Source: a virus (lineage: Duplodnaviria > Heunggongvirae > Uroviricota > Caudoviricetes). From it: DNA of 44,903 bases. Below are positions 25,142-35,249 of the stretch, one piece after another (the stretch's first letter is position 1; the number at the start of each line of letters is the position of its first letter). The notes below the pieces were generated by a model. That model was given only the letters and a program-made list of their open reading frames with translations. It was not told where the DNA came from and searched no databases. The DNA is taken from the IMG/VR virus record IMGVR_UViG_2718217885_000015; one strand, 5' to 3'. A program made the translations under genes and the position numbers.

Positions 25142-25443
25142 ACCCCGTCTCCCGTTATCCGGAAGCTGACAACAATAAAAAAGCCACCCGTTAATTACTG
25201 ATGGCTCTGATGCATAAACGTCATCATTCCTGACCGTTATGATTGACAATGGTTATCATTTTTATATAAAAATACTCCCGATATGTGTTACATATCATTT
25301 CTCCACGGGGAATATCCCCACGCCAGCGTCAGACTCGTTTTCCCGTTCTCTTCTGTGCTGGCGTTTTTTTATTATGATGTCGGTGCATTTATTTCCAGCA
25401 CCAGGCTTTCAATCTCAACACCATACGCGGAATTTTTGGGCGT

Positions 25444-25469
25444 AAAAAATCCCCTCCGGTGAGGGGATT
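25444..25469 (-). terminator. Rho-independent terminator upstream of the holin (candidate tR')
   Basis: Stem AATCCCCTC/GAGGGGATT with a 4-nt loop; the A-run on the plus strand gives a U-run on the minus strand. Confidence 0.5.
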
Positions 25470-25701
25470 TGCTTATGTAAACATTTACACTGCTTACCTG
25501 CATGGTGCCGGGTGCCTCCCGGTGAATTCAGTATCAGCACCTGAATCCGCAATTATCCCATATACCTACTTGCTGATTGCCCCTCCGCACAGGGGGATTC
25601 ACCATGCGAAATTTTTTTAACAAATGCTCAGTCTGACAGGCAACTGTCAACTGACTGAATTGTGAGACAATTAAAATTTTCGGGGCGTAACTGATACCCG
25701 G

Positions 25702-25866
25702 TTAACTACCTGGCATGTCCTTTTTCACCAAAGGAAAAAGCACCACCACAATACCGACCACCAGCACTCCATCCGCCAGCACCGACATGATCCTGCTGGT
25801 GAAATCCACCATCACCACCAGAAACAGCAGGAGTGCCACAGCGGCCAGACGCAGTTTTACCGTCAC
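25702..25866 (-). CDS. Small hydrophobic protein (54 codons) coupled to the TerB-like gene
   Basis: GTG start overlaps the TerB-like TGA stop (CTGTGACGG); translation VTVKLRLAAVALLLFLVVMVDFTSRIMSVLADGVLVVGIVVVLFPLVKKDMPGS shows two hydrophobic segments; below the ORF-track size cut-off. Confidence 0.4.
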   Translation of the reverse strand: MTVKLRLAAVALLLFLVVMVDFTSRIMSVLADGVLVVGIVVVLFPLVKKDMPGS

Positions 25867-26294
25867 AGGTGGTTCTCCAGTCGCAGGCCAAGAACACCAG
25901 CAATCTCTTCCAGAACCTTACGCTCTTCCGGCTCAATTTCACCATCTGCTTCAGCAATGGCCACCGCCACATCCAGCACATCTTCCGCTTCACGCGTATC
26001 GTGTTTCACATCTTCAATTTCACGCAACGCTGCACGACGACCAATTTTAAAATTGGTGTCAAGCTGACCTGTGATCGTGGCACTGATGGCATTAATTTCT
26101 GACGTAAATGCGGACAATGCTGGCTGGTTACGTAATACCTGTTCGATCTTCGCTTTCTCTGAAGTCTCACATTCACCATCTGCATAGGCCACCAGGTAGG
26201 CAGCATTAATAACCGCCTGTGCCAGATCGCGTTTCTCAAACTTTTTAATTTCAGTTGCTGCTCTGCGGGTTTTCTTTTTGAAAATACCAAACAT
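25863..26294 (-). CDS. TerB-like (tellurite-resistance TerB family) protein
   Basis: 143 aa; repeated acidic helices (VINAAYLVAYADGE... and VAVAIAEADGEIEPEERKVLEEIA) typical of the TerB fold. Confidence 0.65.
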   Translation of the reverse strand: MFGIFKKKTRRAATEIKKFEKRDLAQAVINAAYLVAYADGECETSEKAKIEQVLRNQPALSAFTSEINAISATITGQLDTNFKIGRRAALREIEDVKHDTREAEDVLDVAVAIAEADGEIEPEERKVLEEIAGVLGLRLENHL

Positions 26295-26467
26295 CGTGAC
26301 TTTTCCTTTTAGTGGGTGAGCCTGCGCCCGGGGGTGACCAGCCCACAGAGAAAGTCACACTGACCATCCAGTAAGCTCCCCCCTGAAAAGCTCTGTGGTT
26401 TTTGATATGCGCCGGGCGTGGCGCGGATACAAAAAAGGCCCGCAAAAGCGAGCCAGGAAAATAAGTA

Positions 26468-26544
26468 TGGCGCGTTGTACTGGATTCGAACCAGTGACCG
26501 ATTGCTTAGAAGGCAATTGCTCTGTCCGACTGAGCTAACAACGC
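26468..26544 (-). tRNA. argO: tRNA-Arg (anticodon UCU)
   Basis: Folded by hand: acceptor GCGTTGT/ACAACGC, D-arm GCTC/GAGC, anticodon stem ATTGC/GCAAT with loop CTTCTAA, T-arm ACTGG-TTCGAAT-CCAGT, encoded CCA; 77 nt. Confidence 0.85.
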
Positions 26545-26557
26545 ATGATGCAGATAA

Positions 26558-26638
26558 TGGACCGCCATCGAGGACTCGAACCCCGCACCAACAACCCTGT
26601 TATCGTGTCGTCTGCTCTTCCTGATGAGCTAATGGCGG
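26558..26638 (-). tRNA. tRNA-like sequence with canonical acceptor, D- and T-arms but a non-canonical anticodon arm (possible pseudo-tRNA; argN-like position)
   Basis: Acceptor CCGCCAT/ATGGCGG, D-arm GCTC/GAGC, T-arm CGGGG-TTCGAGT-CCTCG and CCA are present, but the 27-nt region between D- and T-arms (GACGACACGATAACAGGGTTGTTGGTG) gave no standard 5-bp stem with 7-nt loop in my manual fold. Confidence 0.5.
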
Positions 26639-26645
26639 TATGTTA

Positions 26646-26721
26646 TGGTGGCCCTTGCTGGATTTGAACCAGCGACCTGGCGATTATGAGTCGCTCGCTC
26701 TCACCACTGAGCTAAAGGGCC
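26646..26721 (-). tRNA. ileZ: tRNA with anticodon CAU (Ile2/lysidine-type or Met; ileZ-like position)
   Basis: Acceptor GGCCCTT/AAGGGCC, anticodon loop CTCATAA, T-arm GCTGG-TTCAAAT-CCAGC, CCA encoded; 76 nt. Confidence 0.85.
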
Positions 26722-26761
26722 GGGCGCAGGATAATAACGGTACGTAACTAATTCTGCAATA

Positions 26762-27820
26762 TCATCCGTTCTGACTGACTAAATCCTGAACTTCCTTGAC
26801 CGTCTGCTCAAAACGCTCAGTCTCCAGCTCAACGCCAATTGCACGACGTCCCAGCGCCATCGCTGCTTTGACCGTCGAACCCGACCCCATGAAAAAATCT
26901 GCAACCAGATCTCCCGGACGACTGCTTGCGCTGATTATCTGCTGCAACATTTCTGCCGGTTTTTCGCACGGATGTTTCCCGGGATAGTACTGCACCGGTT
27001 TATGCATCCACACATCGGTGTACGGCACCTGCACAGTCACACCGAAATACCGCCGCAAATTTTTATATTCTCTCAGCAGTTCCGTATACTGCCGGTTCAG
27101 TTCACTGTATGTGCTGACCAGCTGGTGGTGTGGCTGCTCCAGTTCACCGCGCTGATGTTTTTCTGCTGCAACACGCGCAAACAACGCCTGCAATTTGTTG
27201 TAATCAGCTTCGTTCGGTAACTGCCACTGACTGGTACCAAACCAGTGCGAAGCCATGTTTTTCTTTCCGGTGGCTTCCGCTATCTGTTTTGACGTTATTC
27301 CCAGTTCGGCACGAGCATCCCTGAAATACGATATCAGCGGTGCCATTATGTGCTGTTTGAGTTCCCTTTCTTTTGCCGCATAGCCGTCACTTTTGCCGCG
27401 ATATGGCCCCTGGTAATGTTCAGCAAACAGAACGCGCTCTGTGGCAGGAAAATATGCGCGCAGACTTTCTTTATTACACCCATTCCAACGTCCGGACGGC
27501 TTCGCCCAGATGATATGGTTAAGCACGTTGAAACGTTCACGCATCATGATCTCAATATCAGATGCCAGGCGATGCTCACAGAACAGGTAAAGACTTCCGG
27601 CAGGTTTCAACACCCGCCAGAACTGGGCCAGACAGTGGTCCAGCCACTTAAGATAATCTTCGTCCCCTTTCCACTGATTGTCCCAACCGTTGGGTTTCAC
27701 CTTGAAGTAAGGCGGATCGGTAACAATCAGGTCAATGGAATCATCAGGCAGGGACTGAATAAAATGCAGGCAATCAGCGTTGATTAAATCAATACTGTTT
27801 ATTTTTACAGTATTTTTCAT
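26762..27820 (-). CDS. DNA methyltransferase (N6-adenine/N4-cytosine class; orphan, phage-borne)
   Basis: 352 aa; catalytic DPPY motif (VTDPPYF) near the N-terminus and AdoMet-binding FxGSG (DFFMGSGST) near the C-terminus; no adjacent restriction endonuclease recognised. Confidence 0.85.
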   Translation of the reverse strand: MKNTVKINSIDLINADCLHFIQSLPDDSIDLIVTDPPYFKVKPNGWDNQWKGDEDYLKWLDHCLAQFWRVLKPAGSLYLFCEHRLASDIEIMMRERFNVLNHIIWAKPSGRWNGCNKESLRAYFPATERVLFAEHYQGPYRGKSDGYAAKERELKQHIMAPLISYFRDARAELGITSKQIAEATGKKNMASHWFGTSQWQLPNEADYNKLQALFARVAAEKHQRGELEQPHHQLVSTYSELNRQYTELLREYKNLRRYFGVTVQVPYTDVWMHKPVQYYPGKHPCEKPAEMLQQIISASSRPGDLVADFFMGSGSTVKAAMALGRRAIGVELETERFEQTVKEVQDLVSQNG

Positions 27821-28975: not shown

Positions 28976-29356
28976 CTAACGATCCATCTCTAGCTCAATT
29001 TCTAACATCATTAACATGCCATCAACTACACCTTCAGCCTTTTGCAATAAACGCCCAACCCAGCAATCAGAACGCCCATGTTTACGGGCAAGCGCCATAA
29101 ACGTCATACCACCTACATAATAATCCACTAATAAATCGTGCAAATCGCTGTTGTTCTTTTTCAGGCGAGCCATGCACCCACAAATGATCATCGCGTCATC
29201 GTCACAACATTGCGGGCGGGATTTTACTTTTGAAGGGATTAGTCCTTTAAATCCTGCAGCAATAGACGACCAGGTGACATCCTCGTGATTATTTGCCACC
29301 CATGCCCCCCAACGTTCAAGAACCATTTGAATATCACGCATCAACTTTCTCCACAA
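28976..29356 (-). CDS. Q: Late gene antiterminator Q (phage 21/82 or QuuD type)
   Basis: Resembles recalled DLP12 QuuD ([14 protein letters not shown]..., Cys cluster [16 protein letters not shown]); likely start at Met6 (29341). Confidence 0.8.
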
Positions 29357-34649: not shown

Positions 34650-35249
34650 GGCAGCCTCCGTATGCAATGGATAACTTCCACCACCGGAAACGCCAATTTC
34701 GCTGGTGGTGAACTGAGCAGGGTTGGCGTAACCGGCGCATACGGAAACCGGCGCACCTTTCGGTGCCCCCACCCAGCCCACCATAATTTGGGTATAGCTG
34801 AGTTGTAGCAACAAAAAAGACGCTAACGCGCCAATTGTCGCCGTATGCAATTCCAGGACGCCAATCCCGGCACCCGCTTTATAAGGTGCCTGAACAGTGT
34901 AACGTCCCGGAATGGCAGAATCAATGTGCTGGTGGTCCTTCACACTCAACAAAATCACGCCTGAATTTCCACAAAGGGCTAAAGCACTCATGCGGGTAGT
35001 CTTTGCGAAGATAGATAACGCGCTGTGTTTCTGGCTCCCAACGAATAACATGAACATAAAGTCCTCTTCCGTCACGAAACCAGCGGTTAAGTTCCTGCAC
35101 AACTCGCCACCCACAGTCAGGTAAAGTTCTCTGTGGTTACTTACAGCCAGGAGATTTGGTAATCTGCATTCATGCCGTAACAACAGGTGTTCAGCGACCC
35201 TGACCACCAGCTGTTGCGACAAACGGTTATTTGCCGTTAAACTGTTCAT
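34650..35249 (-). CDS. Uncertain: upstream in-frame part of the 382-aa ORF (separate gene, N-terminal domain of a longer Rha protein, or non-coding)
   Basis: In-frame ORF continuing upstream of the Rha start; its ATG at 35249 overlaps the stop of the cII-like gene, which suggests coupling, but the sequence has no recognisable domain. Confidence 0.25.

Follow-up and report, generated by a model that had tools for sequence, protein, structure and literature searches.

The stretch of DNA analysed here, referred to as the window, comprises the whole 44,903 nucleotides (nt) of the Caudoviricetes virus record IMGVR_UViG_2718217885_000015 (IMG/VR). A previous reading of this DNA from its letters alone, the sequence-only reading, had proposed that three transfer RNA (tRNA)-like genes lie on its minus strand between a methyltransferase gene and a TerB-like gene, at the position occupied by ileZ, argN and argO in lambdoid prophages. 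Both parts of this proposal agree with our analysis. The three genes and their neighbours according to Pfam, an N6_N4 DNA methylase (26762-27820) and a TerB-domain protein (25863-26294), are all encoded on the minus strand, and many Stx2 phages, which carry these genes upstream of stx2A under the names ileZ, argN and argO, show 92-93% identity to the 321-nt cluster region. Of the three genes, the outer two are standard tRNAs, which ARAGORN calls with default settings and which score far above the gathering score (29 bits) of the Rfam tRNA model RF00005 (Table 1). They are spaced 101 nt apart, and this spacing contains an 81-nt middle gene, which is the subject of this report.

Table 1. Features of the tRNA-like gene cluster, with positions numbered from the first letter of the window
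Feature	Positions	Strand	Basis and remarks
tRNA, anticodon CAU (= ileZ)	26646-26721	minus	ARAGORN default; Rfam tRNA model, 72.5 bits; RefSeq tRNA-Ile in the identical copy L001
Middle tRNA-shaped gene, 81 nt, with a non-canonical anticodon arm, in the argN slot	26558-26638	minus	Sequence, fold, family covariance model R1, alignment to argN
tRNA-Arg, anticodon UCU (= argO)	26468-26544	minus	ARAGORN default; Rfam tRNA model, 71.7 bits; annotation of the identical copy L001
Central 28 nt of the middle gene, AGACGACACGAUAACAGGGUUGUUGGUG	26586-26613	minus	Replaces position 26, anticodon arm and variable loop of argN; alignments and folds
Promoter-like element before the first tRNA	26731-26759	minus	TTGCAG (26754-26759), 17-nt spacer, TATTAT (26731-26736); read by eye
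Intrinsic-terminator-like hairpin GGCUCGC-UUUU-GCGGGCC with U run	26437-26454	minus	Terminator scan; directly after the third gene

The middle gene reads CCGCCAU-UA-GCUC-AUCAGGAA-GAGC-AGACGACACGAUAACAGGGUUGUUGGUG-CGGGG-UUCGAGU-CCUCG-AUGGCGG-U-CCA. The acceptor stem of its body has 7 base pairs (bp) and is followed by U8. The D arm pairs over 4 bp and presents G18G19 and A20 in its loop, the T arm pairs over 5 bp below a UUCGA loop, and the 3' end is formed by the discriminator base and an encoded CCA. All features of a canonical tRNA body (acceptor, D stem with G18G19, T arm with UUCRA, N73-CCA) are thus in place, and secondary-structure prediction folds the gene on its own as a cloverleaf. 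However, as the sequence-only reading had also noticed, the anticodon region is not standard. The central 28 nt do not form a 5-bp anticodon stem with a 7-nt loop that would place U33 and a purine at position 37 around a triplet. They can instead pair as GACGAC/GUUGUU, giving a 6-bp stem with an 11-nt loop, or, in the minimum-energy fold, as CGAUAAC/GUUGUUG with two more pairs (7-9 bp) closed by an AGG triloop.

The tRNA detection tools reflect this mixed anatomy. ARAGORN with default settings did not call the middle gene, whether introns were allowed or not. The relaxed mode, which the sequence-only reading had recommended as a check, returned only a 'tRNA-?' with an 8-nt loop and the four-base anticodon AACA, drawn on a 5-bp stem with two mismatches. 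The Rfam tRNA model found no match to the gene even at E<=10 in a 401-nt search. In a 100%-identical copy in E. coli 08-00022, RefSeq labels it 'tRNA-OTHER'. No tool assigned a standard cloverleaf with an anticodon, the outcome that would have made it an ordinary tRNA, and the description of the gene in the sequence-only reading is thus upheld. We also considered an intron-containing tRNA and other RNA families. The former was rejected, as ARAGORN with introns gave no credible candidate and very low thresholds produced noise; the latter yielded only weak matches below threshold at a permissive E-value in Rfam (YrlA, 20.1 bits; mascRNA, 13.8 bits). We conclude that the middle gene is a real tRNA look-alike, already flagged as such by the RefSeq label, and its anatomy indicates that it would no longer decode.

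The origin of this look-alike can be traced by comparison with argN, which ARAGORN calls tRNA-Arg(UCG). We aligned the cluster in the window with seven canonical ileZ-argN-argO clusters. From the promoter-like block to the terminator they match nearly base for base, including the spacers, both outer tRNAs and the middle gene at its two ends. The sole differing stretch begins in the D-loop of the middle gene and extends to its variable loop. The two genes occupy the same slot between the same flanking tRNAs, and their acceptor stem, positions 8-16, T arm, discriminator and CCA are identical. They differ in that argN carries its loop, CUUCGAA, on a stem of 5 bp (CCAGC/GCUGG or UCAGC/GCUGG), whereas the middle gene has a D-loop shorter by one base and 28 unrelated nt in place of position 26, the anticodon arm and the variable loop. 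The replaced cassette includes the 3' half of the D-loop in addition to the central 28 nt. The alignment thus shows the clean exchange of one cassette within argN and no scattered decay. C35 and A20 are recognition elements of the arginyl-tRNA synthetase (ArgRS). The middle gene retains A20 but has no anticodon loop and hence no UCG anticodon, the loss of which removes any help that argN could give with CGA and CGG codons.

The same 81-nt sequence type as in the window was found in a sample of 18 loci, among which there are three variants. Variable sites number 5/81 in the middle gene, compared with 4/76 in the first tRNA and 1/77 in the third tRNA. One variant, L097, carries three base changes in the central 28 nt, all of which are compatible with pairing. 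The cluster region is also 98.4% identical to that of phage phiP27, whose depositors annotated two tRNAs only.

The middle gene proved to be one member of a larger family, which we found by pattern scans of viral, genome and metagenome collections together with scans anchored on tRNA-Thr and on the 3' end. The members share a backbone in which CCGCCA(U/C) is paired with (A/G)UGGCGG, followed by N73 and CCA. The canonical anticodon arms on this backbone are Arg(UCG), that is argN, Arg(UCU), Arg(CCU), Ile(UAU) and, very common, Lys(UUU), the Lys(UUU) members having C33 or A33 in place of U33. Dozens of other members bear non-canonical arms, with a stem RYRAC/GUUGU and loops of 3, 4, 5, 6, 8, 9 or 11 nt; some have 7-nt loops without U33 or without a purine at position 37. 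Members stand second in clusters of the type CAU-X-Thr(UGU)-Gly(UCC) or CAU-X-Arg(UCU), between the antiterminator gene Q and the lysis genes, in prophages of Escherichia, Salmonella, Citrobacter, Klebsiella, Cedecea, Yokenella, Kluyvera and other genera. Orphan members were found on Klebsiella and Citrobacter chromosomes, and the 81-nt query matched 141 large Salmonella plasmids at ~78% identity. On the one examined, the conjugative megaplasmid pESI (NZ_CP088902.1, L377 4001-4077), the member is an orphan with the non-canonical stem AUAAC/GUUGU and the loop CCCGAG, and lies between adiA and the gene of a helix-turn-helix regulator. A 90-kb IncY plasmid of E. coli (NZ_CP091840.1, L378 2918-3171), which may be a phage-plasmid, shares with the window the cluster of CAU, look-alike and Arg(UCU) genes, here too beside a DNA methyltransferase gene.

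To place the window copy in this family, we built a covariance model (R1) from 25 family members, leaving out the sequence type of the window. R1 matched 26558-26638 over its full length with 80.1 bits (E 4.5e-18), compared with 46.8 and 37.1 bits for the neighbouring true tRNAs. The model aligned the stem of the middle gene as GACGAC/GUUGUU, with AUAAC/GUUGU as the alternative, and the central stem typical of the family is thus present. This result supports the assignment of the window copy, as judged from its sequence, to the non-canonical look-alikes. The Rfam tRNA model, which did not match the middle gene, found no match either for two relatives, the sequence upstream of yahM in E. coli K-12 described below (L003) and a copy next to Q and a holin gene (L124).

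Two observations on the backbone stand apart from the window copy. At L267 and ~40 other loci from the tRNA-Thr scan, and at L316, a Lys(UUU) gene with the loop CCUUUAA (C33) or CAUUUAA (A33), in place of the near-universal U33, lies just upstream of a phage tRNA-Thr(UGU); from their loops, these genes look like escape variants from nucleases that cut near position 33/34. In the viral contigs L274 and L294, one prophage holds two genes of the same backbone at a distance of ~800 nt: a Lys(UUU) gene of canonical form and a non-canonical gene of 82 nt, the latter with the compensatory pairs U4-A69 and A10-U25.

The middle gene alone also matches, with 87% identity over 81 nt, a sequence between yahL and yahM in E. 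coli K-12 (L003 2502-2582). This orphan and its flanks are present as a single copy in 5166/5426 complete E. coli genomes (~95%). All 81 nt are identical in E. coli, E. albertii, E. whittamii, E. ruysiae and one further Escherichia species, while its flanks diverge heavily across the same five species and the yahM open reading frame (ORF) is not conserved; the neighbouring yahN retains 92-95% protein identity across the Escherichia species compared. ARAGORN calls the orphan a tRNA of odd geometry. RefSeq annotates only the yahM ORF at this locus, with the start codon of yahM inside the orphan, and we found no description in the literature of the sequence upstream of yahM as tRNA-like. A sigma-70 promoter match (11/12) is located 88 nt upstream of the orphan, and a massively parallel reporter study described an active, IHF-repressed yahM promoter (10.1101/2025.05.13.653802). 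A strong terminator-like hairpin, apparently the terminator of yahN, lies inside the annotated yahM ORF (L003 2678-2728, minus strand). Because of this hairpin and the poor conservation of the ORF outside E. coli, it is doubtful that yahM is a real protein gene.

The orphan and the window copy resemble each other in the acceptor stem, the D arm, the T stem and the central motifs GAGCAGACGACA and CAGG-UUGUUG. The orphan differs in being solitary and in having its own promoter match. A connector of 5 nt leads into its possible central stem ACAAC/GUUGU, which would enclose the 7-nt loop CAGGAUU. In the window copy, an ACGAY repeat is added, the loop has 3 or 11 nt and the variable region is shorter.

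The family is large enough to ask which parts of these genes are constrained. For this comparison we used 24 distinct sequences of the 73/74-nt group of the CAU-X-Thr-Gly type. The mean pairwise difference per site was 0.40 in the loop and 0.36 in upstream non-coding DNA. The 5' acceptor strand showed no difference (0.000), the 3' acceptor strand together with N73 and CCA reached 0.05, and the two strands of the central stem gave 0.06 and 0.009. These values for the body (0.00-0.06) were measured in body parts that the search pattern does not fix. At the same 24 loci, the corresponding values were 0.069 for tRNA(CAU) and 0.005 for tRNA-Thr. We had suspected diversifying selection on the loop, since close relatives differ only there, but loop diversity equals that of the upstream non-coding DNA; the loop is therefore best viewed as unconstrained and not as accelerated.

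Pairing is also well preserved. Among 47 non-canonical members, 96.5% of the pair positions in the acceptor, D and T stems hold standard pairs, and both sides of the pair have changed at 7-66 (C-G in 27 members, U-A in 19), 4-69 and 10-25. The A10-U25 change was seen again in a member from the scan anchored on the 3' end only. In the central stem, changes of the 5' strand are transitions that still pair with GUUGU (wobble-compatible), and in one member a change from A-U to G-C is compensated. The body of the look-alike remains intact at loci where adjacent true tRNAs are mutated or lost (L129, L137, L146, L185, L136 and L215). A clearly decayed copy, L288, provides an example of a dead gene. 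The orphans of Klebsiella and Citrobacter differ by 1-6% between species within the element and by 46-62% in the 300 nt on each side. Taken together, the sequences suggest that the tRNA body is under selection in this family and that the loop is unconstrained, which is the opposite of the pattern of a decoding tRNA.

Returning to the window, the cluster is bordered by elements that could serve its expression. The first tRNA begins ~10 nt downstream of the TATTAT hexamer of the promoter-like block. A promoter scan of the window did not accept this block, whose first hexamer has 3/6 matches while the tool needs 4/6. The block is kept in canonical ileZ-argN-argO clusters even where the DNA farther upstream differs, and we regard it, from this conservation, as a probable promoter-like element of the cluster. 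The terminator-like hairpin after the third gene is also kept in the alignment with canonical clusters. The three genes may, as this arrangement suggests, also form a small transcription unit of their own within the lambdoid late region, which runs in the order antiterminator Q (28976-29356), methylase, the three genes, TerB, a DUF3927 protein, STnc100, and holin with lysozyme, all on the minus strand. The STnc100 small RNA (25438-25636, minus strand), between the DUF3927 and holin genes, reaches the Rfam gathering score with 148.7 bits. Elsewhere in the window, C4 antisense RNA (34701-34788, 80.7 bits) and isrK (34813-34889, 61.2 bits), both on the minus strand, reach their gathering scores as well.

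The sequence-only reading had further assumed that the flanking tRNAs supply the decoding of rare AUA and AGA/AGG codons. This is plausible for the window as a whole, in which 37 long ORFs use AGA, AGG and AUA 5.3, 4.1 and 7.1 times per 1000 codons, about two to three times the E. coli average. However, it is only weakly borne out by the late genes downstream of the cluster, where the same codons are low, at 2.8, 3.2 and 4.1 per 1000.

As an explanation of the middle gene, we favour, with somewhat more confidence than doubt, a processed, non-decoding tRNA mimic that would act through its body. The gene is best read as a complete tRNA-shaped gene that shares its lineage with argN of Stx and other lambdoid phages and in which the stretch from the D-loop to the variable loop appears to have been exchanged for a cassette related to that of the orphan upstream of yahM. 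It would probably be co-transcribed with the flanking tRNA(CAU) and tRNA-Arg(UCU), either in the promoter-to-terminator unit of the cluster or in a Q-dependent late transcript. Since the features required for tRNA end processing are kept (7-bp acceptor, D/T elbow, discriminator and CCA), excision as a stable RNA is expected, and release by RNase P and 3' trimming would leave 81 nt ending in CCA. The long irregular hairpin that replaces the anticodon arm would be unable to present a triplet, so that we infer an RNA without a decoding function. Because selection appears to act on the body and not on the loop, a role via tRNA-binding partners is the most economical one, and the family most likely works through the tRNA body, as a mimic occupying a tRNA-binding partner or as a processing module.

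Our preferred guess for this role is a non-cleavable decoy against defence nucleases that attack the anticodon arm. It is suggested because the other slots of the cluster hold tRNA species targeted by such nucleases; the sister genes and neighbours of the backbone include Lys(UUU) with an altered position 33, Thr(UGU) and Arg species. Nucleases of enterobacterial defence systems are known to act on the anticodon arm of such tRNAs. In tRNA-Lys, PARIS cleaves the anticodon stem at positions 40/41 (PMC11464382), and in tRNA-Thr(UGU), P2-OLD cleaves this stem at paired CNG motifs (PMC12445682); in both cases, phage tRNA variants rescue infection. HepS cleaves Thr, Ile and Ser tRNAs (PMC13043305), and loop changes have been described as an escape route from nucleases (PMC10264068). 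The stem of argN contains paired CAG/CUG, whereas the look-alike stem GACGAC/GUUGUU has no C on its 3' strand. The phage tRNAs known to escape nucleases, such as T5 tRNA-Lys against PARIS and tRNA-Thr(UGU) against P2-OLD (PMC11464382, PMC12445682, PMC10264068), are likewise phage-borne and depart from the host version in the anticodon arm. However, these escape variants decode and replace the cleaved host tRNA, whereas the middle gene would be at most a decoy, a mechanism not reported for the PARIS or P2-OLD escape systems.

Several points weigh against a mimic acting through its body, at least for the window copy. The decoy idea is one of analogy alone, and a survey of neighbouring genes revealed no conserved partner protein: the neighbours change with the context, from methylase and TerB in the window to Q and holin (L124), dsbD-like and LysR genes (Klebsiella), adiA (pESI) and yahL and yahN (E. 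coli). The discriminator base varies among U, A, C and G across the family, which argues against a single conserved aminoacylation identity. Several insertions and deletions separate the central hairpin in the window from its invariant chromosomal counterpart, and the deletions collapse the 7-nt loop seen there; judged from this comparison, the window copy could be a degraded derivative of a functional RNA. In 7/18 loci of the window type, including the phiP27 record, a C-to-G change at window position 26570 creates a G50-G64 mismatch in the T stem, which looks like relaxed constraint in the phiP27-type copies; the window copy itself carries the paired version at this site (T-stem position 64). 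Only three variants of the 81-nt type were found, and a metagenome scan for its central cassette yielded no further variants, so that the constraint on this type is poorly sampled. For the family at large, some of the search patterns fixed the D arm and the T loop and thereby account for part of the apparent invariance of the body, a bias controlled only by the Thr-anchored and 3'-anchored scans, and recombination with canonical paralogues in co-resident prophages could preserve the arms without selection.

A plain pseudogene is a serious rival for the window copy, although we consider it less likely than not. According to this explanation, an argN-type tRNA was disabled by recombination or an insertion or deletion in the anticodon arm and is simply carried along between two useful tRNAs, its arms being intact through the recency of the event or through gene-conversion repair by paralogues. 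The complete identity of the arms to argN fits a recent event, and the T-stem mismatch in 7/18 loci, the indels in the centre relative to the conserved chromosomal version and the annotation of only two tRNAs by the phiP27 depositors are all in its favour; the decayed relative L288 demonstrates that such genes die. Against it, the non-canonical members are many and diverse, yet they have kept the body and the central stem and show compensatory changes; they outlast adjacent true tRNAs at several loci and persist intact as orphans in chromosomes and plasmids without tRNA neighbours. Even within the window type, the middle gene is not decaying faster than the first tRNA, and all three central changes of L097 preserve pairing. 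The intact body could also be explained if it were kept only for RNase P and the 3' enzymes to mature the flanking tRNAs or a downstream message, with the excised RNA having no role. The conserved features are indeed those that RNase P reads (the stack of acceptor and T stems, the elbow and N73-CCA), with the loop free to vary, and the cluster is a compact unit between a promoter-like block and a terminator. We nevertheless regard a pure processing module as quite unlikely, because orphan copies stand without neighbouring tRNAs, some clusters lack the module and have tRNA-Thr directly behind a promoter, the central stem is conserved too, and the Escherichia orphan is invariant over all 81 nt, including the loop and the variable region, beyond the needs of processing.

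The remaining two explanations carry very little weight. An unusual decoding tRNA with an enlarged anticodon loop, which could read a four-base codon or act as a frameshift or nonsense suppressor, is brought to mind by the 8-nt loop and the AACA 'anticodon' of the relaxed ARAGORN call and by some close relatives that ARAGORN calls with anticodons such as AAA, UAA, UUA and UGA. This is highly improbable, as the relaxed fold needs two mismatches in its 5-bp stem while the thermodynamically preferred fold is a hairpin of 7-9 bp with a triloop, the loops of the family vary in length between 3 and 11 nt, conserve neither U33 nor a purine at position 37 and change in sequence at the non-coding rate, and none of the three sequence types tested is accepted by the Rfam tRNA model. 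Even less credible is an integration scar, in which an integrated element would have left part of a tRNA gene at its border. Integration into tRNA genes is common, partial copies of these genes are often mis-called as tRNAs (PMC9897764), and the flanks of the orphan copies are very variable. However, the gene is full length with both acceptor strands, lies in the prophage late region between Q and the lysis genes instead of at a prophage end, and adjoins sequence co-linear with canonical clusters.

Among known systems, two resemble the putative non-decoding mimic. The tRNAOther of Bacillus cereus is a pseudo-tRNA that is non-functional in translation and affects gene expression and antibiotic resistance (PMC3399842). 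Both are tRNA-shaped, annotated as 'Other' and tied to mobile DNA, with a proposed role outside decoding. They share no sequence relationship, their hosts belong to different phyla, and tRNAOther has experimental support, whereas the middle gene is known from its sequence alone. The tRNA-like module of YrlA, a Y RNA-like RNA of bacteria, similarly mimics acceptor, T and D arms with the anticodon stem replaced by another helix. Its weak Rfam match here (E 0.088, against a gathering score of 69) spans two adjacent genes, and the window gene has no Ro-binding stem and no rsr or rtcB context. Our literature search on ileZ, argN and argO, on the tRNAs of phiP27, on prophage tRNA-like decoys and on non-canonical phage tRNAs found no description of the middle gene or its family. 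The family of non-canonical look-alikes is thus apparently undescribed, although pseudo-tRNAs and tRNA mimics as such are already known.

The family and the K-12 orphan are of more interest than the window copy itself. We propose, tentatively and with more doubt than conviction, that enterobacteria and their temperate phages carry an unrecognised class of functional non-decoding tRNA mimics built on one chassis, which would act through the tRNA body, for example as regulators or as uncleavable decoys for the anticodon-arm nucleases of anti-phage defence. The window gene would be a prophage-borne member of this class, and a promoter-driven orphan belonging to the K-12 core genome would be hidden under the start of yahM. 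Should these genes be inert relics instead, annotation would still be affected: genes called 'tRNA-OTHER' in prophage clusters ought to be left out of estimates of decoding capacity, and the annotated start codon of yahM lies inside a tRNA-like sequence. Phage tRNA genes are now viewed as counter-measures to bacterial nucleases that cut tRNAs. If the proposal is true, a look-alike that offers only the body would represent a different tactic, in which a nuclease or another tRNA-binding factor is titrated and the cut tRNA is not replaced. As the orphan is invariant, present in ~95% of complete E. coli genomes and unannotated as RNA, it poses a simple question that is directly testable in K-12.

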